NCBI RefSeq assembly: GCF_003018255.1
Contig: NZ_CP027440.1
Length of the DNA: 64,000 bases
Direction: 5' to 3' (one strand)
Origin: Escherichia coli
Lineage (GTDB): Bacteria > Pseudomonadota > Gammaproteobacteria > Enterobacterales > Enterobacteriaceae
Shown here: piece after piece, positions 4,844 through 63,130 of the stretch
How positions within the stretch are numbered: position 1 is the first letter of the stretch
Layout: every line of letters begins with the position of its first letter
Notes under the pieces: model-generated
What the model was told of the DNA's origin: nothing
Seen by the model: the letters and a program-made list of their open reading frames with translations, nothing else
The model's database searches: none
Made by a program: the position numbers and the translations under genes

Positions 4844-6067
4844 TTATTCCTTTTCAAGGGCTTGTTCTACAATTTCAATCCAGTGACGCACAGAGGTACG
4901 ACCGGCGCTCGCCAGATGCGTCTGGCAACCAATGTTGGCGGTGACGATCATTTCCGGTTTGCCGCTTTCCAGCGCATTCATTTTGTTATCCCGCAGCTGG
5001 CGTGCCAGATCGGGATGCGTTAACGCATATGTTCCCGCTGAACCGCAGCACAGATGGCTGTCGGGAACGTCCGTTAAGGTAAATCCAAGACGAAATAACA
5101 CTTTTTCCACTTCGCCGTTCAGCTTTTGCGCATGTTGTAGGGTACACGGGCAGTGGAAGGCCAGTTTTTTATCGCCGCGAATTGCCAGTTTTTCCAGTGG
5201 TTCCTTGCGCAGAAGTTCGACTAAATCGACCGCCAGCTCACTGACCTGACGCGCTTTATCGGCATACAACGCATCGTTTTTCAGCATCTGCCCATACTCT
5301 TTAACGAACGCGCCGCAACCGCTGGCGGTTTGCAAAATTGCCTCGGCACCTGCTTCAATCGCGGGCCACCAGGCATCAATATTATTGCGCGCCCGCGCTA
5401 ACCCTTTCTCTTGCGCATTAAGATGATAGTCCACCGCGCCACAACAGCCTGCTTCGTTAGCTGGCATGACGCTGATCCCCAGACGATCCAGCACTCGCGC
5501 AGTTGCCGCGTTGGTGTTGGGCGAAAGCGTAGGCTGGGCGCAGCCTTCCAGCATTAAAACCCGACGCTTATGGCGCAGCGGTGGACGCGGTTTAGCTTTC
5601 ACGGTTTCAGCAGGCAGTTTTGCTCTGACCTGTTCCGGTAAAAACGGTCGCAGCACCAGCCCTACCTGCGTCAGCGCACGGAAGACCGCCGGACGCGGCA
5701 CTACCTGGCGCAATCCTTCGCGCAGCATTCGCTCCGGCAGTGGGCGTTTCACTTTCTGCTCGACAATATCACGCCCGATATCCAGCAAATTGTGATAACG
5801 CACACCAGAAGGACAGGTGGTTTCACAATTGCGGCAAGTGAGACAGCGATCGAGATGCTCCTGTGTTTTAAGCGTGACTTCGTTGCCTTCCAGTACCTGT
5901 TTAATCAGATAGATGCGCCCGCGCGGCCCGTCCAGTTCATCGCCCAGAAGCTGATAGGTTGGGCAGGTTGCGGTACAAAATCCGCAGTGAACACAGGCGC
6001 GCAGGATGCTGTCGGCTTCCAGCGCGCGCGCGTTCTGCCGCATCTCTTCTGTTAATCGGGTTTGCAT
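4844..6067 (-). CDS. glcF: Glycolate oxidase iron-sulfur subunit, 407 aa
   Basis: Track ORF has 63-codon N-terminal extension; internal start MQTRLTEEMRQNARAL gives 407 aa; CxxCxxCxxxCP ferredoxin motifs present. Confidence 0.9.
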   Translation of the reverse strand: MQTRLTEEMRQNARALEADSILRACVHCGFCTATCPTYQLLGDELDGPRGRIYLIKQVLEGNEVTLKTQEHLDRCLTCRNCETTCPSGVRYHNLLDIGRDIVEQKVKRPLPERMLREGLRQVVPRPAVFRALTQVGLVLRPFLPEQVRAKLPAETVKAKPRPPLRHKRRVLMLEGCAQPTLSPNTNAATARVLDRLGISVMPANEAGCCGAVDYHLNAQEKGLARARNNIDAWWPAIEAGAEAILQTASGCGAFVKEYGQMLKNDALYADKARQVSELAVDLVELLRKEPLEKLAIRGDKKLAFHCPCTLQHAQKLNGEVEKVLFRLGFTLTDVPDSHLCCGSAGTYALTHPDLARQLRDNKMNALESGKPEMIVTANIGCQTHLASAGRTSVRHWIEIVEQALEKE

Positions 6068-9650: not shown

Positions 9651-10793
9651 TCAAATCTGCTTTTCATACAATCGGTAACGCTTGTACGGCTCCGCCCCAA
9701 TGCGTTCCAGCATGTTATTCATGCCTGTATTGGTTTCGAGGATCCATGACATCTCCAGCGCATCGATCTTCCGACGGGCAAACGGATCGCGTAAGGCTTC
9801 AATCAATAACAGCGCAATTACCGGGCCGATGCGGCTGAACTGATACTCGTCCCGCACGCCCATCAGCGGCACTCGCGCAGTTCGCACACCGCTGACTTTC
9901 AAACGCCACAGCAATTTTGCCCAGCCGAAGGGAAAGAGCGATCCGTTCAGATCGGCAATCGCCTCGTTGATGTTCGGCAAGCCAACAATAAACGCGCAGG
10001 GTGCAGAATCAATCTCAGCGATGTAGATCATATCGTCCGGCACCAGATATTTAAGTTGATCGCCCATGGTCGCGAATTCATGTTCGGTAAACGGCACAAA
10101 TCCCCAGTTGTGCTGCCAGCCAGAATTGAAAATCTCACGCAGGATCTGCATCTCTTCGGCAAACCGCTGGCGATTGATGCAGCGAATGGTCACTTTTTTG
10201 CGCACCTGATCCATCAGTTTTTTTAGCGCCGGAGAGAACGTGAGATCGGTTCGCTGCATCCACCACGCCAGTAAATCAATGCCTTTGTGATAACCCAGTT
10301 GTTCAATATGCGCGGCATACCACGGTTTGCCGTGTGGCATCATCGCACAGGGCGGAGTGTCAAAACCTTCAATCAGTAATCCGCTTTCCTGATTGATATT
10401 CAGGCTGAAAGGCCCGCTGATCTTATTTGCACCTTGTGACTTTAACCACGCTTCCGCTGCGCCAAACAACGCGGCAAAAACCTGCGGATCATCAATGGCA
10501 TCAATCATTCCGTAATGACCGGTATCTTCACCGTAACGCTCACGGTGCAAGGTATCGATTTGCGCGGTAATACGCCCAACTATCTGCCCCGCTTTTTTTG
10601 CCACCCACGCCTGCCAGATGATATGGTCCGTCCCCGGATTCTTCGCAGACAAATGCTCGCTGCGTTCAATGAATAAAGGGGGTATCCAGTTTGGATCATC
10701 GGGATAAAGTGATGACGGAAAAGCGATAAATGCCTTAAGGTCATTTTTATTAATTACTTTTTCAATTTTAATCATCAGCAGATCGCATTCCAT
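9651..10793 (-). CDS. yghO: Large GNAT-like acyltransferase (YghO), 380 aa; candidate N-acyltransferase of the adjacent lipid module
   Basis: Full-length ORF convergent with glcC and divergent from the acyl-AMP ligase operon; position matches yghO in K-12; GNAT-like assignment from sequence recognition only. Confidence 0.7.
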   Translation of the reverse strand: MECDLLMIKIEKVINKNDLKAFIAFPSSLYPDDPNWIPPLFIERSEHLSAKNPGTDHIIWQAWVAKKAGQIVGRITAQIDTLHRERYGEDTGHYGMIDAIDDPQVFAALFGAAEAWLKSQGANKISGPFSLNINQESGLLIEGFDTPPCAMMPHGKPWYAAHIEQLGYHKGIDLLAWWMQRTDLTFSPALKKLMDQVRKKVTIRCINRQRFAEEMQILREIFNSGWQHNWGFVPFTEHEFATMGDQLKYLVPDDMIYIAEIDSAPCAFIVGLPNINEAIADLNGSLFPFGWAKLLWRLKVSGVRTARVPLMGVRDEYQFSRIGPVIALLLIEALRDPFARRKIDALEMSWILETNTGMNNMLERIGAEPYKRYRLYEKQI

Positions 10794-11164
10794 ATCTCTG
10801 TGGATAACAAATAATTAACGGTGAAAAACAGGTTGCAACAGCAACGAACGGCATCTTAATAATCAACCCAATGAATACAAACAAAGAATAAATAGTATTT
10901 ATTAATGATTACGATAAGGTCAGAGACTACACAGAAGCGCCACAATGCCTCTTGTCGATTTAAGGCGACCGGACAAGGCTCCTTCTTAATATATTCATAA
11001 ATTAAATATCATTCACAATAAAAACAAAAAAACTCAAACATATTATTTAAATCAATGTTCATTTTCACACCGATGAAAATACTATCTCATTTATCTTTTA
11101 TGCCTATATAATCCACCGCATTATTGTCATTTTATTTTGGATATCCAATTTTTTCGTGGTGTAT

Positions 11165-12889
11165 ATGTCTAATAAAATCTTTACGCATTCCCTACCTATG
11201 CGCTATGCCGATTTTCCAACGCTGGTTGATGCTTTGGACTACGCCGCTCTGAGTAGCGCCGGAATGAATTTTTATGACAGACGTTGCCAACTTGAAGATC
11301 AACTGGAATATCAGACGTTAAAAGCGCGTTCCGAAGCTGGTGCGAAAAGGTTGTTATCGCTGAACCTGAAAAAAGGCGATCGCGTGGCGCTGATTGCCGA
11401 AACGAGTAGCGGGTTTGTAGAGGCTTTTTTTGCCTGCCAGTATGCCGGCTTAGTCGCCGTCCCGTTGGCGATTCCAATGGGCGTCGGTCAGCGGGATTCC
11501 TGGAGCGCCAAACTGCAGGGTTTACTGGCAAGTTGCCAGCCCGCAGCCATTATCACTGGTGATGAGTGGTTGCCACTGGTCAATGCCGCGACGCATAACA
11601 ACAACCCCGAATTACATGTTTTAAGCCACGCCTGGTTTAAGGCATTACCGGAAGCCGATGTTGCGCTCCAGCGTCCAGTTCCAAACGATATCGCCTACCT
11701 CCAGTACACCTCCGGCAGCACCCGTTTTCCCCGTGGCGTCATTATCACCCATCACGAAGTGATGGCTAATCTACGTGCTATAAGCCACGATGGCATTAAA
11801 TTACGCCCTGGCGACCGCTGCGTCTCCTGGCTGCCTTTCTACCATGATATGGGACTGGTCGGCTTTCTCCTGACCCCCGTCGCCACGCAGCTTTCAGTAG
11901 ATTATTTGCGCACTCAGGATTTTGCCATGCGTCCTCTGCAATGGCTTAAATTGATCAGTAAAAATCGCGGCACCGTTTCCGTTGCACCGCCGTTTGGCTA
12001 TGAATTGTGCCAGCGCCGCGTGAATGAAAAAGATCTCGCTGAACTGGATCTTTCCTGCTGGCGCGTCGCTGGTATTGGAGCAGAACCGATCTCCGCAGAA
12101 CAACTCCATCAATTCGCTGAATGTTTTCGTCAGGTTAACTTTGACGATAAAACTTTCATGCCGTGCTACGGACTGGCAGAAAATGCGCTGGCTGTCAGCT
12201 TCTCTGATGAAGCCTGCGGGGTTGTGGTTAACGAAGTGGATCGCGACATCCTCGAATACCAGGGTAAAGCCGTCGCGCCGGGTGCTGAAACACGCGCCGT
12301 ATCGACTTTCGTCAACTGCGGTAAAGCGTTGCCGGAACATGGCATTGAAATCCGCAATGAAGCAGATATACCTGTCGCGGAACGTGTGGTAGGCCATATT
12401 TGCATCTCCGGCCCCAGCCTGATGAGCGGGTACTTTGGCGACCAGGTTTCGCAAGACGAGATTGCCGCGACGGGCTGGTTAGACACCGGCGACCTTGGTT
12501 ATCTGCTGGACGGTTATCTGTATGTCACCGGACGCATTAAAGATCTGATTATTATTCGTGGCCGTAATATCTGGCCGCAGGATATTGAATACATTGCGGA
12601 ACAGGAACCGGAAATTCATTCTGGCGATGCGATTGCTTTTGTTACCGCCCAGGAAAAAATCATTTTGCAGATCCAGTGTCGGATCAGCGACGAAGAACGT
12701 CGCGGGCAGCTTATCCACGCGCTGGCAGCTCGGATCCAAAGCGAATTTGGCGTTACCGCGGATATCGATCTGTTGCCGCCCCACAGTATTCCCCGAACAT
12801 CCTCCGGCAAGCCTGCCCGTGCGGAAGCGAAAAAACGTTATCAGAAGGCTTATGCTGCCAGTCTTCATGTGCAGGAATCCCTGGCATGA
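11165..12889 (+). CDS. Adenylate-forming fatty acyl-AMP ligase / acyl-ACP synthetase-like enzyme, about 574 aa
   Basis: AMP-binding signature (YTSGSTRFPRGV), size typical of acyl-AMP ligases; start uncertain (track GTG at 11156, first ATG at 11165); stop overlaps next gene start (ATGA). Confidence 0.8.
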   Translation: MSNKIFTHSLPMRYADFPTLVDALDYAALSSAGMNFYDRRCQLEDQLEYQTLKARSEAGAKRLLSLNLKKGDRVALIAETSSGFVEAFFACQYAGLVAVPLAIPMGVGQRDSWSAKLQGLLASCQPAAIITGDEWLPLVNAATHNNNPELHVLSHAWFKALPEADVALQRPVPNDIAYLQYTSGSTRFPRGVIITHHEVMANLRAISHDGIKLRPGDRCVSWLPFYHDMGLVGFLLTPVATQLSVDYLRTQDFAMRPLQWLKLISKNRGTVSVAPPFGYELCQRRVNEKDLAELDLSCWRVAGIGAEPISAEQLHQFAECFRQVNFDDKTFMPCYGLAENALAVSFSDEACGVVVNEVDRDILEYQGKAVAPGAETRAVSTFVNCGKALPEHGIEIRNEADIPVAERVVGHICISGPSLMSGYFGDQVSQDEIAATGWLDTGDLGYLLDGYLYVTGRIKDLIIIRGRNIWPQDIEYIAEQEPEIHSGDAIAFVTAQEKIILQIQCRISDEERRGQLIHALAARIQSEFGVTADIDLLPPHSIPRTSSGKPARAEAKKRYQKAYAASLHVQESLA

Positions 12890-13800
12890 ATCAAACTGTC
12901 GCGGTGACGGGCGCTACCGGGTTTATCGGTAAATATATTATTGATAACCTGCTCGCCCGCGGCTTTCACGTTCGCGCATTAACGCGTACTGCCCGCGCTC
13001 ACGTCAATGATAATCTCATCTGGGTGCGCGGTTCGCTGGAAGATACACATTCGCTTAGCGAACTGGTTGCCGGAGCCAGCGCGGTGGTCCATTGCGCCGG
13101 ACAAGTGCGCGGACACAAAGAAGAGATTTTTACCCGCTGTAACGTTGACGGCAGCCTGCGCCTGATGCAAGCGGCAAAAGAGAGCGGCTTTTGCCAACGT
13201 TTTCTGTTTATCTCTTCGCTGGCGGCGCGCCATCCCGAACTCTCCTGGTACGCAAATTCCAAACACGTCGCCGAACAACGACTGATCGCAATGGCTGACG
13301 AAATTACGCTGGGCATTTTTCGCCCGACAGCCGTGTATGGTCCCGGCGATAAAGAGTTAAAACCGCTGTTTGACTGGATGCTGCGCGGCCTGCTGCCACG
13401 ACTTGGTGCGCCAGATACACAACTCTCTTTCCTGCACGTCACCGATTTTGCGCAAGCAGTGGGTCAGTGGTTAAACGCCGAAACTGTACAGACGCAAACC
13501 TATGAATTATGCGATGGCGTCGCTGGCGGCTATGACTGGCAACGCGTACGACAGCTTGCCGCCGAAGCCCGTTGTGGTTCTGTGCGGATGGTTGGCATTC
13601 CTCTGCCGCTACTCACCTGCCTTGCGGATATCAGTACTGCGTTGAGTCGCCTGGCAGGTAAAGAACCTATGCTGACCCGCTCGAAAATTCGTGAATTAAC
13701 CCACGCCGACTGGTCGGCAAATAATAACCGTATTTCTGAAGATATTAATTGGTTTCCCGGGATTAGCCTGGAACACGCATTACGCAACGGGCTATTTTGA
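12886..13800 (+). CDS. NAD(P)-dependent epimerase/dehydratase-family reductase, 304 aa
   Basis: N-terminal Rossmann motif VTGATGFIGKYI; start at ATG 12886 overlapping upstream stop (ATGA); track ORF from 12676 is an out-of-operon extension. Confidence 0.8.
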   Translation: MNQTVAVTGATGFIGKYIIDNLLARGFHVRALTRTARAHVNDNLIWVRGSLEDTHSLSELVAGASAVVHCAGQVRGHKEEIFTRCNVDGSLRLMQAAKESGFCQRFLFISSLAARHPELSWYANSKHVAEQRLIAMADEITLGIFRPTAVYGPGDKELKPLFDWMLRGLLPRLGAPDTQLSFLHVTDFAQAVGQWLNAETVQTQTYELCDGVAGGYDWQRVRQLAAEARCGSVRMVGIPLPLLTCLADISTALSRLAGKEPMLTRSKIRELTHADWSANNNRISEDINWFPGISLEHALRNGLF

Positions 13801-13831
13801 TTGTCTTGTTTAAAGGTGTGTTAACGTTTCT

Positions 13832-14080
13832 ATGGTAAATCGTGAAATAGTAATGGATTACATCCTTTCCTGTTTACAGGATTTGGTCGAAAACGGTGTG
13901 GAAATTAAGCCCGACAGCGATCTCGTCAACGATCTTGGCCTGGAGTCGATCAAAGTGATGGATCTCTTAATGATGCTGGAAGACAGATTCGATATTTCCA
14001 TTCCTATTAATATTCTGCTGGATGTCAAAACCCCTGCGCAATTAATGGAAACTCTACTTCCATGGCTGGAGAATAAATAA
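13832..14080 (+). CDS. Dedicated acyl carrier protein, 82 aa
   Basis: Small acidic protein with phosphopantetheine-attachment-like motif DLGLESIKVMDL; stop overlaps next start (TAATG). Confidence 0.75.
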   Translation: MVNREIVMDYILSCLQDLVENGVEIKPDSDLVNDLGLESIKVMDLLMMLEDRFDISIPINILLDVKTPAQLMETLLPWLENK

Positions 14081-15252
14081 TGGGGCTATACGATAAATAT
14101 GCGCGCCTTGCTGGCGAGCGCCTGCAATTTAGTGACAACGGGTTAACACCATTTGGCACCTGTATTGATGAAGTGTATTCCGCCACCGAAGGCCGGATCG
14201 GCAATAAAAAAGTGATTCTGGCCGGGACCAATAATTATCTCGGTTTAACCTTTAATCATGATGCTATCCGCGAAGGTCAGGCAGCGTTAGCGGCCCAAGG
14301 CACTGGCACCACCGGTTCTCGTATGGCAAACGGCAGTTATGCGCCGCATCTGGCGTTAGAGAAAGAGATTGCCGAGTTTTTCAATCGCCCTACCGCTATC
14401 GTTTTTTCAACCGGTTATACCGCTAATTTAGGTGTCATCAGCGCACTTGCCGACCATAACGCCGTGGTGTTACTGGATGCCGACAGCCACGCCAGTATTT
14501 ATGACGCCTGTTCTCTCGGCGGCGCAGAGATTATTCGTTTCCGCCATAATGACGTCAACGATCTGGAACGGCGCATGGTCCGCCTCGGTGAACGGGCGAA
14601 AGAGGCGATTATTATCGTTGAAGGCATCTACAGTATGCTCGGTGACGTTGCGCCGCTGGCAGAAATTGTTGATATCAAACGTCGTCTCGGTGGTTATTTG
14701 ATTGTCGATGAAGCACATTCGTTTGGCGTGTTAGGCGCAACAGGCCGCGGACTGGTTGAAGCCGTTGGCGTTGAAGACGACGTGGATATTATCGTCGGCA
14801 CCTTCAGTAAAAGTTTGGCTTCCATTGGTGGTTTTGCCGTGGGTTCAGAAGCGATGGAAGTGCTGCGCTACGGCAGCCGCCCGTATATTTTTACCGCCTC
14901 TCCTTCTCCGTCCTGCATTGCGACCGTGCGCTCGTCGTTAAGAACCATTTCCACACAACCAGAGCTGCGGCAAAAACTGATGGATAACGCCAACAATCTG
15001 TATGACGGTCTGCAAAAACTGGGTTATGAGTTAAGTTCACATATTAGCCCGGTAGTGCCAGTAATAATCGGTTCGAAAGAGGAAGGTTTACGCATCTGGC
15101 GCGAGCTTATTTCGCTGGGCGTTTATGTGAATCTTATCCTGCCACCTGCCGCGCCTGCAGGCATCACGCTGCTGCGCTGTAGCGTAAACGCTGCCCACAG
15201 TCGTGAGCAAATCGATGCCATCATTCAGGCATTTGCTACTCTGAAGCAGTAA
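14080..15252 (+). CDS. PLP-dependent alpha-oxoamine synthase, serine-palmitoyltransferase-like, 390 aa
   Basis: Class-II aminotransferase fold with PLP-lysine motif GTFSKSLASIGG; distinct from BioF and Kbl; translationally coupled to the ACP gene. Confidence 0.8.
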   Translation: MGLYDKYARLAGERLQFSDNGLTPFGTCIDEVYSATEGRIGNKKVILAGTNNYLGLTFNHDAIREGQAALAAQGTGTTGSRMANGSYAPHLALEKEIAEFFNRPTAIVFSTGYTANLGVISALADHNAVVLLDADSHASIYDACSLGGAEIIRFRHNDVNDLERRMVRLGERAKEAIIIVEGIYSMLGDVAPLAEIVDIKRRLGGYLIVDEAHSFGVLGATGRGLVEAVGVEDDVDIIVGTFSKSLASIGGFAVGSEAMEVLRYGSRPYIFTASPSPSCIATVRSSLRTISTQPELRQKLMDNANNLYDGLQKLGYELSSHISPVVPVIIGSKEEGLRIWRELISLGVYVNLILPPAAPAGITLLRCSVNAAHSREQIDAIIQAFATLKQ

Positions 15253-15257
15253 TGTGA

Positions 15258-15292
15258 GCCCGCTGTGGTGTTGCGCCACGGCGGGTTTAATG
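15258..15292. terminator. Convergent hairpin (cccgctgtgg...ccacggcggg) with T-rich tail between the synthase gene and the LptG-like gene
   Basis: About 10-bp stem read from sequence, followed by tttaatg. Confidence 0.4.
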
Positions 15293-16366
15293 TTGTCTGT
15301 CATACCAATACACCAGGCTCAACGCCACCAGCACAAACGCTACCGGTAAACCGAGCGCGGTAACAGGTGCGCTCAACGCAAATAACAATCCCAGATTGAC
15401 CATGATTTGATAGCTGATCCAGGTGAGTAAGCCAACGATGACGCCTACAGCGAGACGGCTACCCATCCCAGGCGAACGCGGGGCGCTAAAGGTAAACGGC
15501 ACAGCCAGCAAAATCATCGCCAGGGTCAAGATGGGTTGTCCCAGTTTTTCCCACAGTGCAAGGCGGTATTCGCTGCTGGGTTGCCCGGTTTCCTGCAAAT
15601 AATGGATGTAATGATTAAGTTGACGGACAGAAAAAGTATTTCCCGGCATCGATAACTCTTCAAGATTCATACTGGTGAAGGCCGATTGCCAGGGAAGATT
15701 ATCAGATGTTTCCTGCGTTTCTTTGCCATTCAGCCATTTTTTATGATTCACACCATGCAGGATCCACGTTTTGTCGTCTTCAATGGTAGCACTGCGCGCA
15801 TAAATGTAGGATTCGAGCGAGAGATCATCGCGGTAATGAAATATCTCCACGTCCACCGGCTGGCCCTGCTCGTTCAGCGATTTCACCGTCACAAATTCAT
15901 TACCACGCCTGGCCCACAGCATATTGCCGGTAATGTCATCGTCCTCCCCCAACGCAGTGGCAGTCGATTTGATTTGCAGCGCCTGTTGCTGCAATGGCGA
16001 CGCCACCCACTCATCTATCGCGCCTAATGAAACAGTCCACAATATCCCGGCAACCAGCGCCACCAGTGCAATACGGAAGATAGAAAACCCCGTGCTGCGA
16101 ATGGCGGTAAGCTCACTGTTTTTCGATAACTGCCCCAGGCCGACAATCCCTCCCAATAAGGCGATAAACGGCGAAAGTTCGACCAGTGTGCGCGGTAAGG
16201 TCATCAGCACCACCAGCACCGCCTGAGTCCAGCGATAACCACCCGGGCTGACATCATCCAGTTCGTTAATCAGGTTGAAGGTGGTAAAAAGCGGCAGCAA
16301 TAGCCCTGCGGCGGCGGCAAAACCGAGAAAGAGATGACGGATTAAATAGCGACTGAAAACATTCAT
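15287..16366 (-). CDS. LptG/LptF-family (YjgP/YjgQ) permease paralog, about 359 aa
   Basis: N-terminus MNVFSRYLIRHLF typical of LptF/G permeases; trimmed to ATG at 16366 overlapping upstream stop (ATGA). Confidence 0.75.
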   Translation of the reverse strand: MNVFSRYLIRHLFLGFAAAAGLLLPLFTTFNLINELDDVSPGGYRWTQAVLVVLMTLPRTLVELSPFIALLGGIVGLGQLSKNSELTAIRSTGFSIFRIALVALVAGILWTVSLGAIDEWVASPLQQQALQIKSTATALGEDDDITGNMLWARRGNEFVTVKSLNEQGQPVDVEIFHYRDDLSLESYIYARSATIEDDKTWILHGVNHKKWLNGKETQETSDNLPWQSAFTSMNLEELSMPGNTFSVRQLNHYIHYLQETGQPSSEYRLALWEKLGQPILTLAMILLAVPFTFSAPRSPGMGSRLAVGVIVGLLTWISYQIMVNLGLLFALSAPVTALGLPVAFVLVALSLVYWYDRQH

Positions 16367-17433
16367 CGGGAAAATTTCTGCAGCAAAGAGAAGTCGCGTG
16401 CGACCAACATCAGCAGGCCCATTAGCATGAGTCCGGGTACTAACCACAAACCAGGAATGAGGGGAATCGCGCCGTTAGCCACCAGCGTACGGCAGACGTC
16501 GCCGCCATAAAAAATGGCAACAAACAGCAACGTCAGTGGCAATAACGTTGAAAATCGCCCTTGCCGCGGTTTTACCCGACTTAATGAAATGGCCAGCAGC
16601 GCCATCAACAATGCTGTCAGGCCACGGCTTTGTCGCCATTGCAGTTCGGCATGATCGGCAGGAAAGGCGGAGCGCGCCAGCTCCGTGACCGATTTTGCTT
16701 TGCGTTTGACGTTAGGGCTTTGATCCAGCGGATTCAGATGTAATTGCAGATTACGGTAGATCTGTTCGTTGTCGTCACGCCCCTGATGATCGAGAAGATA
16801 GGCGGTCCCGTTATGCAACATAACGGTCGGTTTCTCAGGTGATGGGTCAACCACATCAACCGAACGGGCGCGGAAAATGCGGGTTCGATTAGCAGTAGAA
16901 GTATAAATCAGCGCATCAGTCAGGCGATTATTATCCTGATCAACCGTCTGCGAAAGGATCATTCGTCCGTTATCGTTAGTGTTAAATTTCTTTGCCCGCA
17001 ACTGGCGAACATCCAGCTCCGACTGTGACTGTTGCTCCAGTTGATAAATCTGCGCATAAGCCCACGGACGACCATACATCGACAGAAGGGTGACAAAAAT
17101 ACTTAGCGGTATCGCCAGATAAAGAACGGCTTTGTACAAGCGTCCCGGACTGCCCCCCGCCGCAGAGATAGCGGTAATTTCCGAGTCGGTATACATCTGC
17201 CCTAGCGTCACGCCAACTGACACATACAGTCCAACAGGTAACAACATCTCCAGTGCAATCAGCACTTTGTAGAAAACGATATCCAGCACAACATCAAGAG
17301 CTAATGTCCCATTTGCCGCTTCGGTCAGATAACGCTGTGCGGAGTAGCTGGCGAAAATAAAGATCAGAAAACCGACGATAATCAGCACCAGACGGCGCGT
17401 ACCACGCATGATGTAGTGTTCAACCAGCTTCAT
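16363..17433 (-). CDS. LptF/LptG-family (YjgP/YjgQ) permease paralog, 356 aa
   Basis: Polytopic membrane protein with LptF/G-like N-terminus; operon partner of 15287-16366. Confidence 0.75.
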   Translation of the reverse strand: MKLVEHYIMRGTRRLVLIIVGFLIFIFASYSAQRYLTEAANGTLALDVVLDIVFYKVLIALEMLLPVGLYVSVGVTLGQMYTDSEITAISAAGGSPGRLYKAVLYLAIPLSIFVTLLSMYGRPWAYAQIYQLEQQSQSELDVRQLRAKKFNTNDNGRMILSQTVDQDNNRLTDALIYTSTANRTRIFRARSVDVVDPSPEKPTVMLHNGTAYLLDHQGRDDNEQIYRNLQLHLNPLDQSPNVKRKAKSVTELARSAFPADHAELQWRQSRGLTALLMALLAISLSRVKPRQGRFSTLLPLTLLFVAIFYGGDVCRTLVANGAIPLIPGLWLVPGLMLMGLLMLVARDFSLLQKFSR

Positions 17434-17462
17434 CTCACTAACGCCCTCAATCCTTTGAATTT

Positions 17463-18026
17463 TTATTCATTGATCAGCTTCTGCGCCAGCGCAATGACAT
17501 GATCTACCTCTTCCGGCGTCAGGCTGCCGTCCTTTGCCCACTGAATTTGCCCGGTTTTATTCAGCACCAGAATGGTTGAACTCTGCTCCTGCAAGTGCCA
17601 GGCAACGCGTCCCTGTCCATTGCCGTCAATAACGAATTGCGCCCATGGATAGCGGCGTTTATTTTTTTCGATTTTGCCAACGACAAAATAGCCGGTACCA
17701 AAGATGGCATCATCAGTGTTCACAATGGTGGTGGGCTGAAAACGATCCTGCGGAAAGTTTGCCGCTTCAACTGCTTTAATTAACAGTGAGTTCTTTTTCT
17801 TCGCCGACTTACGCCCGGCGATATACTGAATAATGCGAACTTTTCCCGCCAATTGGGTGCTGTTCCACTTTTGGTAGTGAATTTCGTCGTCGCTATTCCG
17901 AAGCAGCTCGCCGCCTTCCTGGATATAAACGGGGGTAACCGTTTTGCCAGTGACGAAATTGTGTGCCTGCACACCCGGGGCTAAGAGCATGATAATCAGC
18001 GCAATAATCAAACGAGATGACATCAT
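17463..18026 (-). CDS. Secreted/periplasmic protein with cleavable signal peptide, possibly YtfJ-like, 187 aa
   Basis: N-terminal signal peptide (...LLAPGVQA/HN); family assignment tentative. Confidence 0.55.
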   Translation of the reverse strand: MMSSRLIIALIIMLLAPGVQAHNFVTGKTVTPVYIQEGGELLRNSDDEIHYQKWNSTQLAGKVRIIQYIAGRKSAKKKNSLLIKAVEAANFPQDRFQPTTIVNTDDAIFGTGYFVVGKIEKNKRRYPWAQFVIDGNGQGRVAWHLQEQSSTILVLNKTGQIQWAKDGSLTPEEVDHVIALAQKLINE

Positions 18027-18034
18027 TGCTCCGG

Positions 18035-18859
18035 TTATAGCGGAAAACGCGAAATCAGCAGTTCTAAGCGCTGGCGAATATCGCTATCCAGCGCCATCGG
18101 TGCATCATACGACTGGCGGTTTTCCATATCATCCGCCACCATGTCGTCGTGTTTATCCCCCATCAGGCCATTAATGGCGGCGAGGAAGCGGGAAATCTGT
18201 AACGCTTCTTTATTTTCAGGATCAAGCGATCTTAGGGTGTCGTAATAAGAAACCTGCTGGCTGATGATTTTTCGCACATCATGAAATTCCCTGCCGGTTA
18301 GTCGCGGTTTGGCAATTATCTCTTTCAGGGTATGCATTTGCTTTTGCCGATAGGCAATAAAACCGCTTACGCTTTCTAACTGGCTATGGCGTAATGAATA
18401 GTTCACCAACGACCAGACCGGAGAGCTTAAATAAACCCGTAACAGGTTGCCGTAATACGACACAATATTTTTCTTACCGTTACGAAAGCCGTCCTGAAAA
18501 CGCCCCAAAAAAACGGTCGTTTTGCCGAATAAAAATCCGGCCTGATGCTTCTTTAAATACAGCCGTTGCGCAAAACGCAGGTGCTTGTAGCGCGCTCGCA
18601 TGTATTTAAATTGTTTGCGCTCATCAGCAGTCAGCTCATCGCCTTTGGCCTGTTTGCATATTAAACGCAGTAACTCCTGGCGATTGACGCCATTGAGCCA
18701 GAATTGCAGGCATAACGCGTAATTATCATGGATGATTTCGGTGGTACAACTTAGTGCGATAGTCGGCGGCAAACTGACCTGTGCATCAACGACATCATCT
18801 TCTTCAATCGCAACAAATAGACGCTCGCTCGCCTCTAGCGGGAAATATTTTCTCATCAT
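18035..18859 (-). CDS. Hypothetical protein, 274 aa
   Basis: Full-length ORF in operon; start overlaps the stop of yghQ by 1 nt; no domain recognised. Confidence 0.6.
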   Translation of the reverse strand: MMRKYFPLEASERLFVAIEEDDVVDAQVSLPPTIALSCTTEIIHDNYALCLQFWLNGVNRQELLRLICKQAKGDELTADERKQFKYMRARYKHLRFAQRLYLKKHQAGFLFGKTTVFLGRFQDGFRNGKKNIVSYYGNLLRVYLSSPVWSLVNYSLRHSQLESVSGFIAYRQKQMHTLKEIIAKPRLTGREFHDVRKIISQQVSYYDTLRSLDPENKEALQISRFLAAINGLMGDKHDDMVADDMENRQSYDAPMALDSDIRQRLELLISRFPL

Positions 18860-20208
18860 CAGGATTTCTCTCCGGCTGCGTTATAAAGCAAGGAATGGCG
18901 CTGAAAAAATGCCTTTAAGGTCGGAATTAGCGAAAGCACCACATCCAGACATTGACCACCGAAATAAGCAAACGCTGCTCCCAGCACGCCAAACAGATGA
19001 CAGAACATGAACAGCAATACGATGTAGCCGATTGAGGCGATGGTTTGCGCCACGAGAAAAGCGCGCTGTTTTCCCGCCATCAATAGCAATGACTCCTGAG
19101 GGAAGCCCAGCATCGAGATCACAATTGCGCCCAGCATCACCTGAATCAGGTCATACGCTTCGAGATACTTAACGCCAAACACCAGCGAAATGAGCGGCTT
19201 GCCGACAATCAACACCGCGAGCGCCACCAGAATACCGATTCCGCCCGCCAGTAAACCTGACTTCACGCCTAACAACCACGGTCTGGTGGTACGCGGATCT
19301 AAACGCATCACCTCTGGGTAAAAACTTTTGCCCAGTAAACCCGCTGGCGTTCCGGCGGCGTCGAAGAATGTCATGGCGATTTTAAATAACCCGGCGGCAG
19401 CGGGTCCTAACACGATCCCCACCAACACTGTGCTGCACGAATTACGCGCCGACCAGATGGAATGGGCAATGTTGGTTGACCAGACAAAACTCCACGCGCC
19501 TTTGATGTGTCGGGCAGACTCAAACAGATTCAATTTGAACGCGTTATGGATATTTCTGCGGCGTAATTCACGTGCGGCAAACCACCAGTACATGGTGCCG
19601 CCAACAAGATTCGAGGCGTACCAGGCAATAACAAAACCCGCAAAACCAAAGTCAAAATACCAGGCAACGACGCTCCCCGCTGCGCGCAGAAAAGGTTTCG
19701 TCGCTTGCTGTACAGCAATTAGATCGAAGCGATCTACCGCACGCAGAATGCCGGTCGGCGTGGAGGAAGCCATTGAAGGAATGAGCGTGCAATACAGCGC
19801 TGCCAGCCAAAAGCTTTGGTCATCCAGACCTAATGAATGGGAAAGAAAAGGGAGTAAGGCAATGCCGCCGACAATCGCCACCGCGCCGCTGACGATATCC
19901 AGCGAGAAGGAAAATGAGACGACATTGCGGAATTGCTGCGGATTATTGTTGGTTAATGCTGGTGTTCCGTACTGAACCACCAGCTGCCATGTCTGAAACT
20001 TAATAAAATCGCTGATCGACTTGGCGTACGATTGTACAATCACCAGTACGCCAAACATGGCGGGCGTCATCCCTTTACCGGCACACGAGAGCGCCAACAG
20101 ACCCAGCAAAGCGCTCACGACATTACTGGAGCCTAACCAGGCGCTATTGCGAATAATGGTGCGAAACGCGCCATCTGCAAACCAATGTTTGATGTTAAAA
20201 CCCGCCAA
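18859..20208 (-). CDS. yghQ: MOP-superfamily flippase/exporter, full-length 449 aa
   Basis: Polytopic membrane ORF at the K-12 yghQ position; K-12 YghQ recalled as 355 aa, suggesting a 3'-truncated K-12 copy. Confidence 0.75.
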   Translation of the reverse strand: MAGFNIKHWFADGAFRTIIRNSAWLGSSNVVSALLGLLALSCAGKGMTPAMFGVLVIVQSYAKSISDFIKFQTWQLVVQYGTPALTNNNPQQFRNVVSFSFSLDIVSGAVAIVGGIALLPFLSHSLGLDDQSFWLAALYCTLIPSMASSTPTGILRAVDRFDLIAVQQATKPFLRAAGSVVAWYFDFGFAGFVIAWYASNLVGGTMYWWFAARELRRRNIHNAFKLNLFESARHIKGAWSFVWSTNIAHSIWSARNSCSTVLVGIVLGPAAAGLFKIAMTFFDAAGTPAGLLGKSFYPEVMRLDPRTTRPWLLGVKSGLLAGGIGILVALAVLIVGKPLISLVFGVKYLEAYDLIQVMLGAIVISMLGFPQESLLLMAGKQRAFLVAQTIASIGYIVLLFMFCHLFGVLGAAFAYFGGQCLDVVLSLIPTLKAFFQRHSLLYNAAGEKS

Positions 20209-20253
20209 TTCAGCCTGACCTTATCGTTGATAGTAAAAAGTATCCCGCCAGCC

Positions 20254-21012
20254 TTAAGTTAAACTTCGGCGGTCAGAAACGATGGCAACCAGAGAAACCG
20301 CCTTCTGTGCCTGTTCCAGCACTTCGCTGTAGGGCGCTCTGGAATCAATCTCAAGAATTTTTGTGCCGTTATAGCCAATCGTCGACATGACGCCGATTTT
20401 GTCCTGCAGCTCGGCATAGTCATGGTCAGGCTTGCGGGAGATGGCAGTATCAATATCAATCCCCAAACGAATGATTAATTCAGGACGGTATTGCGCCATT
20501 TGTTGGTATAAACGCCGTTCGCGCTGCGCCAGAAACATGCTGATTTTCCCGGTCGCACGTTCGACGCCGATCCCCGGTCCGTCATAATAAAAGCCCGAAA
20601 TTTCAGCCTGCGGGAAGCGATCGCTGACCACCAGAACGCCACTTTGCGCCAGTCGCTGAACCTTGCGTAGATTCGCCATTCTTCGCAGCGAGAAGCAGTA
20701 CATAATCACCGCCGCCCATAGCGCTGGAGATTTGGTTTTCATGCTTTGGGTTTTCGAGGATTTGGCCGCCAGTCGCCGTTCGAGCCAGACGCCAACCAAC
20801 GGCAATCGTTTGATTTTGTCGCCGTCTTCGCCCGAGAGCAGCCCCAGATAGCGCCGCTCGGTTTGCCAGTGTTGTTGCAGCGATTTCACCAGGTCGGTGG
20901 TCAGTGTGGATTTACCGGTGCCATCACACCCGACCACCGCAATCAGCCCCGGAATGTAGTTGGGCTGCGGCGCGGTTGTACTATTAACAGTTTGTGTTTG
21001 TAGTGCGTCCAT
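20254..21012 (-). CDS. yghR: P-loop kinase, thymidylate/deoxynucleoside-kinase-like, 252 aa
   Basis: Walker A GCDGTGKST and downstream SDRFPQ motif; length matches K-12 YghR. Confidence 0.85.
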   Translation of the reverse strand: MDALQTQTVNSTTAPQPNYIPGLIAVVGCDGTGKSTLTTDLVKSLQQHWQTERRYLGLLSGEDGDKIKRLPLVGVWLERRLAAKSSKTQSMKTKSPALWAAVIMYCFSLRRMANLRKVQRLAQSGVLVVSDRFPQAEISGFYYDGPGIGVERATGKISMFLAQRERRLYQQMAQYRPELIIRLGIDIDTAISRKPDHDYAELQDKIGVMSTIGYNGTKILEIDSRAPYSEVLEQAQKAVSLVAIVSDRRSLT

Positions 21013-21043
21013 TCGTTAAATCATCCCCTATCCATTTTGGTGA

Positions 21044-21757
21044 TCAGGAAAGCGCGGCGTGAATTGCGCGTAGTGACGCTTGCAGAATTTCATCGGCGGG
21101 TTGCCGACCATCCAGTTCAAGGATCTTTGCACCATTAAATGTCAGTTGCGGCGTAACGGCGATTTTTTCCTGTAACGCCGCCAGTTGGTGGTCAGGTTTA
21201 CGCGCAAACGCGGTTTGTTCATCAATGCCAAGACGAATCAACAATACGGGCAAATAAGACGCCATCCATTGGTACAGCTTCAGCTCGCGCTGCCTTAACA
21301 TTTTTATCCAACCGTTACCGCCCGTGGTTTTTGCCAATTGCGGGCCATCAAAGCGAAAACCCGGCACTTCAACCTGCGGGTAGCGGTCGGTGATGAGCAG
21401 ATAGCCTTGCTGGCTTTTACACAACATTTTGCGAAACTTGTACGCCCGCCAGCAGGAAAGCAGATAGATAACCAGCGCAGTAATATTGCCAGGTGGTGTG
21501 GAGGGCTTTTCGTGCACATGTGCCGCTTTACTTCGCAGATAACGCCCAAAAGGTGCGCCAATAACAGGGAGCTGTGAAATCCATTCGCCAATTCGCCCGG
21601 ACGATTGCCCGAGATAAATGTGTTCTGTTGGCATTGTTGCTGCCAGTTCATTTACCAGGCTTGCCGTGAGGGTCGATTTACCTGAACCATCACATCCTAC
21701 AATGGCAATAACACGCACTGGCGTGGAATTAATTATTGACATATTACGTTGATTCAC
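21044..21757 (-). CDS. yghS: P-loop kinase paralog, 237 aa
   Basis: Walker A GCDGSGKST and TDRYPQ motif; paralog of yghR; length matches K-12. Confidence 0.85.
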   Translation of the reverse strand: MNQRNMSIINSTPVRVIAIVGCDGSGKSTLTASLVNELAATMPTEHIYLGQSSGRIGEWISQLPVIGAPFGRYLRSKAAHVHEKPSTPPGNITALVIYLLSCWRAYKFRKMLCKSQQGYLLITDRYPQVEVPGFRFDGPQLAKTTGGNGWIKMLRQRELKLYQWMASYLPVLLIRLGIDEQTAFARKPDHQLAALQEKIAVTPQLTFNGAKILELDGRQPADEILQASLRAIHAALS

Positions 21758-21931
21758 GAAAAACCCGGCAGCAAATAATGTATTGAATATTACGTGGTCC
21801 GTGCTCAGAATATCCGTTCAACCTTATTGTGACAATGGTTAATTGTGACATTGACCTGAATTACGCTTTCATCAAAAACATATTAACCAAATAAATATTT
21901 TGGATGGATATTTAAATTTAAGGATATATTC

Positions 21932-22624
21932 ATGCAGTCAATAATACCTCCATTAATTGCCGTTATTGGTAGCGATGGTTCAGGCAAGTCAACGGTGTGT
22001 GAACATCTTATTACCGTTGTCGAAAAATATGGTGCTGCCGAAAGAGTTCATTTAGGAAAACAGGCCGGAAATGTCGGTCGTGCAGTGACAAAATTACCGT
22101 TGATGGGAAAGTCTCTGCACAAGACTATTGAAAAAAATGAAGTGAAAACGGCAAAAAAATTGCCGGGTCCGGTTCCGGCCCTGGTGATCACCGCTTTCGT
22201 CGCCCGCCGACTGTTACGCTTTCGTCATATGCTCGCCTGTCGTCGTCGCGGGCTGATTGTCTTAACCGATCGTTATCCTCAGGACCAAATTCCTGGCGCT
22301 TACGATGGTACGGTGTTCCCACCTAACGTTGAAGGCGGCCGGTTTGTCTCATGGCTGGCAAGCCAGGAACGTAAAGCATTTCACTGGATGGCGAGCCATA
22401 AGCCTGATCTGGTCATCAAACTCAATGTTGACCTTGAAGTTGCCTGCGCGCGTAAACCCGACCATAAACGGGAATCGCTGGCGAGGAAGATTGCCATAAC
22501 GCCACAGTTAACCTTTGGCGGTGCACAACTGGTTGATATCGATGCTAATCAGCCACTGGAAAAGGTGCTGGTTGATGCAGAAAAAGCGATTACGGATTTT
22601 ATGACCGCGCGTGGTTATCACTAG
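21932..22624 (+). CDS. yghT: P-loop kinase paralog, 230 aa
   Basis: Walker [10 protein letters not shown] and TDRYPQ motif; divergent from yghS; length matches K-12. Confidence 0.85.
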
Positions 22625-22636
22625 TCAAAAATGGAA

Positions 22637-22668
22637 ATGCCCGATCGCCAGGACCGGGCATTTTCAGG
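22637..22668. terminator. Bidirectional hairpin terminator between yghT and pitB
   Basis: Stem atgcccg...cgggcat with T-runs on both strands. Confidence 0.5.
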
Positions 22669-24172: not shown

Positions 24173-24413
24173 ATATTAGATTACGCCATTTTGAATTTAC
24201 GAACGGAGGCATTATCAGTGACTTTCACGGCGTGGGCAAAGTGAAATATCATTTTTTAACGATAAAAAGCGTGTTATTTCTTGTGTATCAGACAATAAGC
24301 CTTCATTCAAAACCTTTAAAAATAATCAAAACACAGGTATTCCACTTGTTAATATATTCATATATGAAATGAATAAATATTGAAATATATAAATATTGAA
24401 TATTTTGATTAAT

Positions 24414-27430: not shown

Positions 27431-27517
27431 TGTAGGCCGGATAAGGCGTTCACGCCGCATCCGGCAATCGAGCACAATGCCTGATGCGACGCTGCCGCGT
27501 CTTATCAGGCCTACAAA
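27431..27517. repeat. Two inverted REP units (BIME-like)
   Basis: Units ...taggccggataaggcgttcacgccgcatccggca... and ...gcctgatgcgacgctgccgcgtcttatcaggcctaca... between yghU and hybG. Confidence 0.8.
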
Positions 27518-34548: not shown

Positions 34549-34666
34549 CGTTCACCTCATTCGCTATATATTGCCGTATATAGCGATATTTTAGGCAAAG
34601 AACGACATTTGCGCACGCTATTTTTTCATGCTTGTTTAAGACGTAATCCTGTAAGAGATAAACCCA

Positions 34667-35554
34667 TCAGGAGAGATATTTATCGAACCATTTCAGCGTC
34701 CTTTGCCAGGCAAGATCGGCGGCAGATTTGTCATAACGGGGCGTGGAATCATTATGGAATCCGTGATTAACCCCCGGATATATATACGCCTCATAGACCT
34801 TATTATTGGCTTTCAACGCCGCCTCGTAAGCAGGCCAGCCCTCGTTGATTCGGGTGTCCAGTTCCGCGTAGTGCAACAGTAAAGGCGCTTCAATCTTCGC
34901 CACATCGGCAGTGGGTGCCTGACGACCATAAAACGGCACCGCGCAGGCCAGTTCCGGGTAAGCGACCGCTGCCGCGTTCGATACGCCACCGCCATAGCAA
35001 AATCCAGTAATACCCACTTTGCCTGTCGCTTGCGGATAGCTTTGCATAAACTCAATCGCGGCAAAGAAATCATTCATCAGTTTGGTTGGATCAACCTGCT
35101 GTTGCAGCTCACGACCTTTATCATCATTACCCGGATAACCTCCAACGGAACTTAAGCCGTCAGGTGCCAGGGCGATATACCCCGCCTTCGCCACTCGCCG
35201 CGTCACATCTTCGATATACGGATTCAGTCCACGATTCTCATGCACCACCACCACGGCTGGCGTTTTGCCGCTCATTTTTGCGGGCTTCACCAGATAACCC
35301 CGTACCTCGCCGTGACCATTTGGCGAGGGATACGTGATGTACTCTGCAACAATTTCCGGGTCGGTAAACTCTACCTGAGTCGCCAGCGCATAATTTGGCT
35401 TGAGCAAATCAAACAGCGCTAATGCCGTCATCCCGCCCACCGCATACTTCGCCGCAAGGTTGAGGAACTCACGTTTCGAGATTTTCCCGTGAGCGTAATA
35501 GTCGTAGTAATCCAGCAACTCTTGTGGGAAATCTTTGGCGGTTAAACGCGGCAT
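34667..35554 (-). CDS. yghX: Dienelactone hydrolase-family protein, intact, about 295 aa
   Basis: Continuous ORF (track 308 aa, likely start MPRLTAKDF); alpha/beta hydrolase with GFCYGG nucleophile motif; the K-12 gene at this position is recalled as frameshifted. Confidence 0.8.
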   Translation of the reverse strand: MPRLTAKDFPQELLDYYDYYAHGKISKREFLNLAAKYAVGGMTALALFDLLKPNYALATQVEFTDPEIVAEYITYPSPNGHGEVRGYLVKPAKMSGKTPAVVVVHENRGLNPYIEDVTRRVAKAGYIALAPDGLSSVGGYPGNDDKGRELQQQVDPTKLMNDFFAAIEFMQSYPQATGKVGITGFCYGGGVSNAAAVAYPELACAVPFYGRQAPTADVAKIEAPLLLHYAELDTRINEGWPAYEAALKANNKVYEAYIYPGVNHGFHNDSTPRYDKSAADLAWQRTLKWFDKYLS

Positions 35555-44099: not shown

Positions 44100-44203
44100 G
44101 CTTTTTACGCCTCAAACTTTCGTTTTCGGGCATTTCGTCCAGACTTAAGTTCACAACACCTCACCGGAGCCTGCTCCGGTGAGTTCATATAAAGGAGGAA
44201 CGT

Positions 44204-58875: not shown

Positions 58876-59586
58876 TTACTCATTAATCAATTTTTTGATA
58901 TGTTCTCTAATCTCTAACAACCTCATACCATAAGAGATGAATTTATAATCATCTGTATCACGCGCAGGCAAATTATTAATTAAACAAATAAAAAAGCCCA
59001 AATCTCGTTCAACACCACGATTATATCTAATACCAGCCATAATATACTGCTCATTCGTCATATACAGTGTTGCCGAAGAGGGATAATCAAAAAGGACAAG
59101 ATCTCTTAAATAAGTAGCAGCAATTTGAAAGGTAAAATCATCCTCCATTAGGCATGTCGCTAACTCTAACTGATTTCTGGTAGTTAATTCTGAAGGGTCT
59201 AGACCTAGAGTAATCGCTGCGGTTCGTATTTGTATACCCATTGAGCCAAATGATGTTTTATTTTCAGGCATATCTAACAATCCCATCATTCTTTTTGTTT
59301 CATATATCTGAAACTTATAATTTTCAGGCATACCTCCTGACTCAATCCAGGCCACGCCGCCCAGTAACTCTGGACGAATTCCAGCGGCGTATGCATGTTT
59401 AATTATTTTGTCTCTATTATATTGTACATATGCATCTTTATAAGCATTTAAATAATATACTCCTGAACGGCGACGCGAATCATTTTTTCCTAACTTCCAG
59501 AGTAAAACGTCCATTTCATCCCATTTACGGAACTTCGCTTGTGGAATTGTACAATATCTATTTTTTATAGTGAGATCGCTTTTCAT
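58876..59586 (-). CDS. Lysozyme-like / SLT-domain protein, about 236 aa; putative Hcp-associated type VI effector
   Basis: Motifs in order: catalytic-type WIESGG, then GSMGIQI, then YNRG; ATG at 59586 lies 2 nt after the hcp stop with an AAGGA ribosome-binding site inside the hcp 3' end; track start (TTG, 59613) rejected. Confidence 0.55.
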   Translation of the reverse strand: MKSDLTIKNRYCTIPQAKFRKWDEMDVLLWKLGKNDSRRRSGVYYLNAYKDAYVQYNRDKIIKHAYAAGIRPELLGGVAWIESGGMPENYKFQIYETKRMMGLLDMPENKTSFGSMGIQIRTAAITLGLDPSELTTRNQLELATCLMEDDFTFQIAATYLRDLVLFDYPSSATLYMTNEQYIMAGIRYNRGVERDLGFFICLINNLPARDTDDYKFISYGMRLLEIREHIKKLINE

Positions 59587-59588
59587 AT

Positions 59589-60068: not shown

Positions 60069-60216
60069 ATATATTCTCCATAATCATTTTTTCCGAAAAA
60101 CTCCTGTATCATTTGCATAATACATCTCTCCTGTGGGAGCTTATGGGAAGTTGATTTAAGTATTGTCATTTTCAGAAAATATTTATCCCGCATCGGTGAA
60201 TCAGAGAAAGATCAGA

Positions 60217-63120: not shown

Positions 63121-63130
63121 ATAACTCCCG

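Follow-up and report, generated by a model that had tools for sequence, protein, structure and literature searches.

In the study of bacterial membrane lipids, Escherichia coli K-12 serves as the reference organism, and the teaching is that it lacks sphingolipids; it carries five genes of unknown function, yghO, yghQ, yghR, yghS, and yghT, around a copy of the insertion sequence (IS) IS5. Whether these genes belong to a larger system is the question raised by a 64,000-nt stretch of an E. coli chromosome (the window; all coordinates are window positions), in which the locus at 9651–22624 comprises 13 genes from yghO to yghT. The initial annotation had given a K-12 gene order with IS5 between yghO and a 355-aa yghQ, had listed additional genes and a 449-aa yghQ at this site, without a transposase, and had proposed that the window preserves an ancestral, complete system lost by K-12, which would explain the orphan status of yghO and yghQRST. 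The present analysis bears out this proposal. We consider it very probable that the region is an intact, vertically inherited Escherichia sphingolipid locus for the synthesis and export of a lipid, and that K-12 lost its middle part by an IS5-associated deletion. The locus and its sphingolipid assignment have already been published for E. coli B and UTI89, and the present work contributes, as a modest addition, the lesion in K-12, the frequency of the locus, and the assignment of yghQRST to it.

The K-12 Deletion

The K-12 order given there was right, since MG1655 carries glcC, yghO (b2981), IS5LO/insH9, a 355-aa yghQ (b2983), yghRST, and pitB in succession. Alignment of the window with this genome excluded that K-12 has the same content and mapped the gap exactly to one interval, in place of which K-12 has a complete IS5 (Table 1). 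At the left junction, IS5 sits 40 nt inside yghO, and the K-12 gene lacks its promoter and first 13 codons, its annotated start falling within IS5; the whole 371-bp yghO/aasR control region is gone, as the deletion starts at 10754. At the right junction, IS5 is followed by CTAA and then by ATCAGG at 19145. The K-12 yghQ lacks the 94 C-terminal residues (356–449 of 449), a stretch with hydrophobic segments that are probably membrane-spanning, and PGAP marks the gene as incomplete.

The K-12 flanks of IS5, TTAA and CTAA, do not match, and no target-site duplication is present; therefore, the junction did not arise by simple insertion. With a complete IS, unmatched flanks, and genes truncated on both sides, the junction is an IS-mediated adjacent deletion or the product of recombination between two IS5 copies. 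All 4137 genomes covering the right-hand site read CTGA and none reads CTAA, and CTAA was accordingly rejected as a natural polymorphism; the G-to-A change is private to K-12 (CTAA at 5950–5953 of the retrieved K-12 locus). Through this change, the site conforms to the consensus (YTAR-type) target of IS5, and the truncated yghQ, read from the opposite strand, gains its TAG stop.

In the proposed course of events, IS5 would have joined TTAA in yghO to CTAA in yghQ by either of these two routes, removing the yghO promoter and start, aasR-cerR-acpR-spt, lptG2, lptF2, ytfJ2, the 274-aa gene, and the 3' end of yghQ. The K-12 remnants yghO', yghQ', and yghRST would then be functionless leftovers. 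Thus, yghO and yghQRST look orphaned in K-12 because the IS5-associated deletion took the middle 8.4 kb.

A comparable lesion is the IS5 in wbbL (rfb-50), which abolishes O-antigen in K-12. Both are laboratory-lineage IS5 events that remove an envelope (glyco)lipid pathway kept by most wild E. coli, whereas the yghO–yghQ event is an 8.4-kb deletion with unmatched flanks that is not revertible by excision. PMC11677980 lists an IS5 copy at wbbL.

Direction of the Event and Distribution of the Locus

The intact form was found in a close relative of K-12. ST167 (phylogroup A), in which the flanks are 99.96–99.98% identical to those of K-12 and the GlcC, GlcD, YghR, YghS, YghT, and PitB proteins are identical, carries the intact 8390 bp. 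The prevalence was surveyed in 5426 complete E. coli genomes with the presence of at least 80% of the missing segment as the criterion, and 4063 genomes (74.9%), including ST167, SE11, and UTI89, were carriers; strain 2017.09.02CC matched the 8.4-kb query with 100% identity. The two K-12 junctions occurred in 351 and 342 of these genomes, and among the matches listed all were K-12 laboratory derivatives.

Beyond E. coli, the glcC-to-pitB site also holds the locus in E. whittamii and in two further (cryptic) Escherichia lineages. A contig of E. albertii type, which was found via YghT homologues after the contig scan by exact peptide patterns had missed E. albertii, keeps the order from aasR to yghT, followed by pitB-gss-yghU-hyb; across the boundary on the pitB side, the only side recovered, contig and window are collinear at 88.4%. 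In comparison with E. whittamii, the synonymous divergence (dS) of the locus genes is 0.15–0.81, bracketing the values for glcD (0.25) and pitB (0.36), and the GC content of the locus is 0.501 vs. 0.512 for the window.

These data bear on the alternative that the source strain acquired the extra 8.4 kb horizontally, as an inserted island, and that K-12 shows the original empty site. The locus is patchy in the Enterobacterales (Citrobacter amalonaticus, Sodalis, Hafnia, Serratia, and others) and in Pseudomonas, the left flank differs in C. amalonaticus, which suggests horizontal movement at deeper levels, and approximately 25% of E. coli genomes are without the locus. However, K-12 has a truncated yghO and a truncated yghQ around an IS5 without target duplication, other Escherichia species share the site with a divergence collinear with that of the flanks, and the near-isogenic ST167 is intact. 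No integrase or tRNA, and no flanking repeats other than short ones at chance level, were found at the extra genes, and thus no mobility signature of an insertion was seen. Since the K-12 stubs, the shared site, a dS like that of the flanks, the normal GC content, and the lack of mobility features agree, island insertion is rejected for E. coli, and we regard it as exceedingly improbable. Because of the patchy distribution among Enterobacterales and Pseudomonas, older horizontal transfer at deeper levels is likely.

The ancestral, complete system proposed in the initial annotation is hence supported by the gene stubs, the unmatched IS5 flanks, the intact ST167, and the same site in other Escherichia. 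The explanation of the orphan genes is likewise supported, as all 13 genes are found together in Citrobacter, Sodalis, and Rosenbergiella, and most of them in Pseudomonas.

The 13 genes are under purifying selection. The ratio of nonsynonymous to synonymous divergence (dN/dS) was 0.02–0.2 for 13 of 13 genes out to E. whittamii (0.04–0.18 for yghO) and 0.03–0.17 against C. amalonaticus for the 12 scorable genes, where dS was unsaturated; in the latter comparison, the nucleotide alignment of yghQ was only partial, which left this gene unscored, and yghO and lptG2 had reached saturation in dS. The yghT gene of the source strain has a dS of 0.28–0.34 against ST167, SE11, and UTI89, compared with 0.04–0.16 for the neighboring genes, and this unusually high synonymous divergence suggests an old or recombined allele.

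Independent losses have also occurred in E. coli. At least five further truncations were seen, each beside IS26, IS1, or IS3/IS66 elements, and these often extend from the region of the pheV island. In an O157:H7 strain, IS3, IS66, and IS630 lie beside the loss and pitB is truncated; in MS14387, an IS1 adjoins a capsule island; in other types, lptG2 is truncated by IS26, the pheV region is joined to a truncated yghQ by IS26, or lptF2 is truncated by IS1. The interval from the pheV island site to pitB is thus a deletion hot spot. Since the locus has been lost repeatedly and is absent from approximately 25% of genomes, it is dispensable. Smaller lesions were seen as well: yghS is frameshifted in strain E138, and an IS lies inside spt in some strain(s).

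Ceramide-Synthesis Core

Five genes of the locus correspond to a ceramide-synthesis set, which is complete and conserved in synteny. In a Caulobacteraceae locus, the order is a YghQ-like gene, AasR, CerR, AcpR, and Spt, followed after approximately 6 kb by a YghO-like gene, with identities of 34–53% (tblastn). In E. coli, Padilla-Gomez et al. (2022) studied the BL21(DE3) genes ECD_02850–02854 (PMC9386255), assigning yghO (ECD_02850) as aca, an N-acyltransferase homologous to CC_1154, and ECD_02852 as the reductase (epi).

Spt matched the serine palmitoyltransferase equivalog NF047599 with 597.9 bits (cutoff 500), and AasR matched NF006624 with 867 bits (cutoff 600); Spt, AasR, LptF, LptG, and YtfJ are the NCBIfam models scored above cutoff. 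AcpR matched acyl carrier protein (ACP) models below the housekeeping cutoffs, and its gene is a dedicated ACP gene directly upstream of spt, abutting it at 14080, with the acyl-ACP synthetase gene aasR nearby. In BL21, the AasR orthologue ECD_02851 acylates AcpREc in vivo, AcpR (ECD_02853) carries 4'-phosphopantetheine, and AasREc, AcpREc, and SPTEc together yield 3-oxo-sphinganine, SPTEc being active in vitro and in vivo with a preference for acyl-AcpR (PMC9386255). CerR matched epimerase-family profiles and is 34% identical to the syntenic Caulobacteraceae gene; it is a homologue of the ceramide reductase, with that activity predicted from its sequence. YghO shares 41% identity with the gene that occupies the CC_1154 position in the Caulobacteraceae locus and 38–41% identity with Sphingomonas sequences (tblastn).

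The α-oxoamine synthase family is functionally diverse, and Spt also matches BioF, Kbl, and CqsA-type models, which allows the alternative that the Spt-like enzyme and its partners make another α-oxoamine, such as an amino-polyketide or a signaling molecule, and that the Lpt and flippase genes export something else. The head-group genes, which are completely unlike those of Caulobacter, would fit such a product. Nevertheless, the Spt equivalog score exceeds its cutoff and lies far above the scores of the other models, SPTEc makes 3-oxo-sphinganine in vitro and in vivo with acyl-AcpR preferred, and the five-gene ceramide set is present with conserved synteny. A different product is therefore highly improbable in our estimation.

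Predicted Export Genes

The locus contains a paralogous LptF/LptG pair that is distinct from the housekeeping pair. LptF2 (TIGR04407, 320 bits) and LptG2 (TIGR04408, 310 bits) are 29% and 28% identical to the K-12 housekeeping LptF and LptG, respectively, and keep the coupling-helix motifs 'SEIT' and 'SEL'. In Caulobacter, LptF2 and LptG2 form a complex, each binding the sole LptB, and they can be deleted only without anionic sphingolipid synthesis, that is, their essentiality depends on spt (bioRxiv 10.64898/2026.04.12.717747). Fig. 2B of that preprint draws the UTI89 operons for comparison and names lptF2 and lptG2. By analogy, we infer that LptF2 and LptG2 may partner with LptB in E. coli. 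Compared with the LptB2FG(C) extractor, both proteins score above the LptF/LptG equivalog cutoffs and keep the coupling-helix glutamates. They differ from it in their low identity (28–29%), in their position within a lipid-synthesis locus, in being dispensable in strains without the locus, and in that no cognate ATPase or LptC is encoded near lptF2 and lptG2.

YghQ gave a weak MOP flippase profile match, with PF01943 on an orthologue, and shares 34% identity with the gene that lies upstream of aasR in the Caulobacteraceae locus. In K-12, in which studies treat yghQ as an intact gene, the yghQ knockout raised the chlorhexidine minimum inhibitory concentration two-fold (PMC8170033); such K-12 phenotypes should be read with caution, as they concern the truncated remnant.

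Proposed Pathway and Its Weighing

Based on this evidence, AasR would load a fatty acid onto the dedicated carrier AcpR, and Spt would condense acyl-AcpR with serine to 3-oxo-sphinganine, as demonstrated for the BL21 orthologues. By homology and synteny with Caulobacter, YghO would N-acylate the product and CerR would reduce it, giving dihydroceramide. YghQ may then move the lipid across the inner membrane, and LptF2/LptG2, with the borrowed housekeeping ATPase LptB, may extract it for the outer membrane. The conserved co-clustering of YghR, YghS, YghT, the 274-aa protein, and YtfJ2 suggests that they act in the same system, most likely in phosphorylation or handling of the head group. Purifying selection, the occurrence and direction of the deletion, and the nature of the biosynthetic core are established here or in the literature.

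Several points weigh against this interpretation. About a quarter of the complete genomes are without the locus, with repeated loss, and the right IS5 flank in K-12 (CTAA) is one base off every intact genome (CTGA). YghO and the 274-aa protein have no Pfam or NCBIfam match, and no homology links YghRST to CpgB, the ceramide kinase of Caulobacter. CerR starts directly at the Rossmann GxxGxxG motif, with no N-terminal signal peptide seen, whereas a periplasmic location was reported for Caulobacter CerR (PMC11087976); in E. coli, the reduction may proceed with a different topology, or CerR export may be non-Sec. Finally, the literature contains no report of a sphingolipid from unmodified E. coli, and BL21 with empty vectors showed no 3-oxo-sphinganine (PMC9386255). 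Based on these last two observations, the locus may be silent under laboratory conditions.

They also favor the alternative that E. coli in general carries the locus as a decaying or cryptic remnant, conserved in sequence, unexpressed, and without a lipid in nature. The AT-rich control regions (GC content 0.30–0.32), which might be silenced, the frequent IS-mediated losses, and the frameshifted yghS or IS within spt in some strains agree with this. On the other hand, all 13 genes are intact and the dN/dS values given above, both to E. whittamii and against C. amalonaticus, are unexpected for unexpressed DNA. In addition, sphinganine-like and ceramide-like migrating products appeared in BL21 over-expressing only the first three steps, and the authors suggested chromosomal enzymes, possibly ECD_02852 and YghO, as their source (PMC9386255). 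We therefore consider a cryptic remnant unlikely and retain the reading as a sphingolipid synthesis and export locus.

Comparison with Known Sphingolipid Loci

The E. coli B and UTI89 sphingolipid genes are the same locus, the UTI89 8.4-kb segment being 96.6% identical with an identical gene order. Padilla-Gomez et al. (PMC9386255) ascribed the genes to 'E. coli B', whereas in this study approximately 75% of the complete genomes contained at least 80% of the segment. In the searchable text of PMC9386255 and of the 2026 preprint, the K-12 IS5 deletion, yghQ, yghRST, the YtfJ paralogue, and the 274-aa protein are unmentioned. The literature searched contained no explicit link of the locus to the K-12 IS5 deletion, no conserved co-clustering of YghR/S/T, no possibly CHAD-like protein or YtfJ paralogue in the locus, and no link of yghQ with sphingolipids, and a single paper connected yghO with them; papers in which yghQ and IS5 both appear do not describe the deletion.

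The region CC_1152–CC_1168 (CCNA_01212–01226) of Caulobacter crescentus shares with E. coli the gene order AasR, CerR, AcpR, and Spt, together with a bCerS homologue, the LptF2/LptG2 pair, a MOP-type candidate flippase, and the lack of lptB in the locus. The same parts, including LptF2/G2 and the candidate flippase CC_1166, were described for Caulobacter in PMC11324152. Unlike Caulobacter, E. coli has no LptC2 and no CpgA/CpgB/CpgC head-group genes, in place of which it has three proteins of thymidylate-kinase fold, a YtfJ paralogue, and a possibly CHAD-like protein. Because the Cpg genes are absent and other genes are present instead, the final lipid of E. coli is probably not ceramide phosphoglycerate.

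YghR, YghS, YghT, the 274-aa Protein, and YtfJ2

YghR, YghS, and YghT are paralogues with 32–44% identity and invariant Walker A, DR[YF]PQ, and RKPDH motifs. The AlphaFold2 model of YghT (pLDDT 82.5) gave thymidylate kinases as top Foldseek matches (E 9e-9, TM approximately 0.6, 22% identity); an insert at residues 45–76 (32 residues) has low model confidence and is followed by a long helix. The common ground with thymidylate kinases is limited to the fold, the P-loop, and the DR[YF] motif, and the RefSeq name dTMP kinase was rejected for YghS and YghT, which scored 24.8–30.9 bits against the TIGR00041 cutoff of 83.25. Likewise, an assignment as CpgB-type ceramide kinases was rejected, CpgB belonging to the LCB5/DAG-kinase family.

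The ceramide genes are accompanied by YghRST in Citrobacter, Sodalis, Rosenbergiella, and Pseudomonas. In the last of these genera, LptF2G2 and YghRST-like kinases lie beside the core, with an MsbA-like exporter, a CptA-like phosphoethanolamine transferase, and a weakly matching YegS-like lipid kinase as neighbors. These neighbors make the Pseudomonas context point to a phosphorylated head group. In the locus of Pseudomonas sp. LS-2, there is no YghQ homologue, an MsbA-like ABC exporter follows spt, and four YghRST-like genes are present; the CptA-like transferase scored 852 bits and the YegS/DAG-kinase-like match was weak. The positions noted for this version are 1489–2532, 11267–13000, and 14732–16480 of the retrieved locus.

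The 274-aa protein has 343 homologues; among the 120 listed, all are hypothetical and the named ones are all enterobacterial. It is possibly a divergent CHAD-like polyanion-binding module. No Pfam CHAD match was obtained for it or for any of 30 homologues, and hhalign comparison of its family revealed no similarity to E. coli YgiF (CHAD; probability 0.3%) or to two unassigned Pseudomonas ORFs. YtfJ2 matched TIGR01626 with 212 bits, has a signal-like N-terminus (MMSSRLIIALIIMLLAPGVQA), and occurs only in enterobacterial versions of the locus. PDB sequence searches with YghS, the 274-aa protein, YghO, and YtfJ2 found nothing significant, and PADLOC analysis of seven locus proteins gave no defense-system match beyond a P-loop trace.

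As the known members of the thymidylate-kinase fold phosphorylate a phosphate, it might be speculated that YghRST phosphorylate ceramide, perhaps to a pyro- or polyphosphorylated form, together with the possibly CHAD-like protein, in a head-group chemistry proper to the enterobacterial loci and unlike that of Caulobacter, and that YghQ and LptB2F2G2 deliver the product to the outer membrane. We hold this idea to be doubtful. If it were true, most wild E. coli would be able to make an anionic sphingolipid missed by K-12-based lipid biochemistry.

Significance

Approximately three-quarters of complete E. coli genomes carry a sphingolipid synthesis and export locus under purifying selection, and K-12 is without it only through a lineage-specific IS5 deletion. 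The five K-12 genes named at the outset are thereby accounted for. K-12 and K-12 repaired with the 8.39-kb segment are a ready pair for testing the identity and role of the lipid, and it is in the conserved parts YghRST, the 274-aa protein, and YtfJ2 that new biochemistry could emerge.

Gene Organization and Other Features of the Window

The window order is glcA-glcB-glcGFED, glcC, the locus, pitB, gss, yghU, hyb, and onward, with gaps of 6 bp to glcC and 48 bp to pitB. All open reading frames listed in the initial annotation, including the 449-aa yghQ, are present (Table 1) and agree with the RefSeq annotation of a 99.8%-identical genome. In accordance with the earlier statement on transposases, no IS5 end, transposase, or tRNA was found in the locus region.

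Table 1. Features of the locus and of the K-12 deletion, in window positions.
Feature	Position	Strand	Description
yghO	9651–10793	-	bCerS (Aca; CC_1154) homologue, predicted N-acyltransferase step
TTAA	10750–10753		Adjoins left IS5 end in K-12
Interval absent from K-12	10754–19140		8387 bp; complete 1195-bp IS5 in its place
yghO/aasR divergent control region	10794–11164		AT-rich, 371 bp, GC 0.31
aasR	11165–12889	+	Fatty acyl-AMP ligase type acyl-ACP synthetase, to load AcpR
cerR (epi)	12886–13800	+	SDR/epimerase-family (NAD-dependent epimerase/dehydratase) reductase; CC_1164 ceramide reductase homologue
acpR	13832–14080	+	Specialized acyl carrier protein
spt	14080–15252	+	Serine palmitoyltransferase
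Hairpin, 16-bp stem	15255–15289		Between convergent spt and lptG2
lptG2	15287–16366	-	Second LptG-type permease
lptF2	16363–17433	-	Second LptF-type permease
ytfJ2	17463–18026	-	YtfJ-family protein, signal-like hydrophobic N-terminus
274-aa gene	18035–18859	-	Hypothetical; soluble all-helical protein
yghQ, 449 aa	18859–20208	-	Predicted MOP-family flippase; homologue of Caulobacter candidate flippase CC_1166
CTGA	19141–19144		K-12 reads CTAA beside right IS5 end
yghR	20254–21012	-	Kinase-like, thymidylate-kinase fold, P-loop
yghS	21044–21757	-	yghR/yghT paralogue; first gene of predicted seven-gene minus-strand operon
yghT	21932–22624	+	Third paralogue, divergent from yghS
Hairpin	22635–22663		Between yghT and pitB, right-hand locus boundary

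The two hairpins and the gene spacing suggest four transcription units, namely yghO; aasR-cerR-acpR-spt; yghS-yghR-yghQ-274-aa gene-ytfJ2-lptF2-lptG2; and yghT. The hairpin between spt and lptG2 is probably a bidirectional terminator. An AT-rich motif (ATATATTCAT...) is repeated at 10982–11008, 21878–21897, 21924–21943, and 24345–24371; the copies lie between yghO and aasR, between yghS and yghT, and upstream of pitB, and one pair is 88% identical over 26 nt. The motif may be an operator common to these regions or may reflect chance similarity of AT-rich DNA. An inverted repeat of 38 nt with 76% complementarity (21672–21709/21956–21993) lies in the 5' coding parts of the divergent yghS and yghT.

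Elsewhere in the window, a MurR/RpiR regulator and an iron-siderophore ABC transporter (a substrate-binding protein, two FecCD permeases, and an ATPase) lie beyond ygiN at approximately 59563–64000, a transporter block that we take to be absent from K-12 at that position. In the matching genome, the yghX gene at approximately 34657–35544 bears the annotation of an intact 'YghX family hydrolase'; in K-12, this gene is presumably a pseudogene. Three RNA families exceeded their Rfam gathering score, namely the C0719 small RNA (sRNA) at 1965–2186, naRNA4 at 27435–27511 (both strands), and the ES173 sRNA at 44102–44165.

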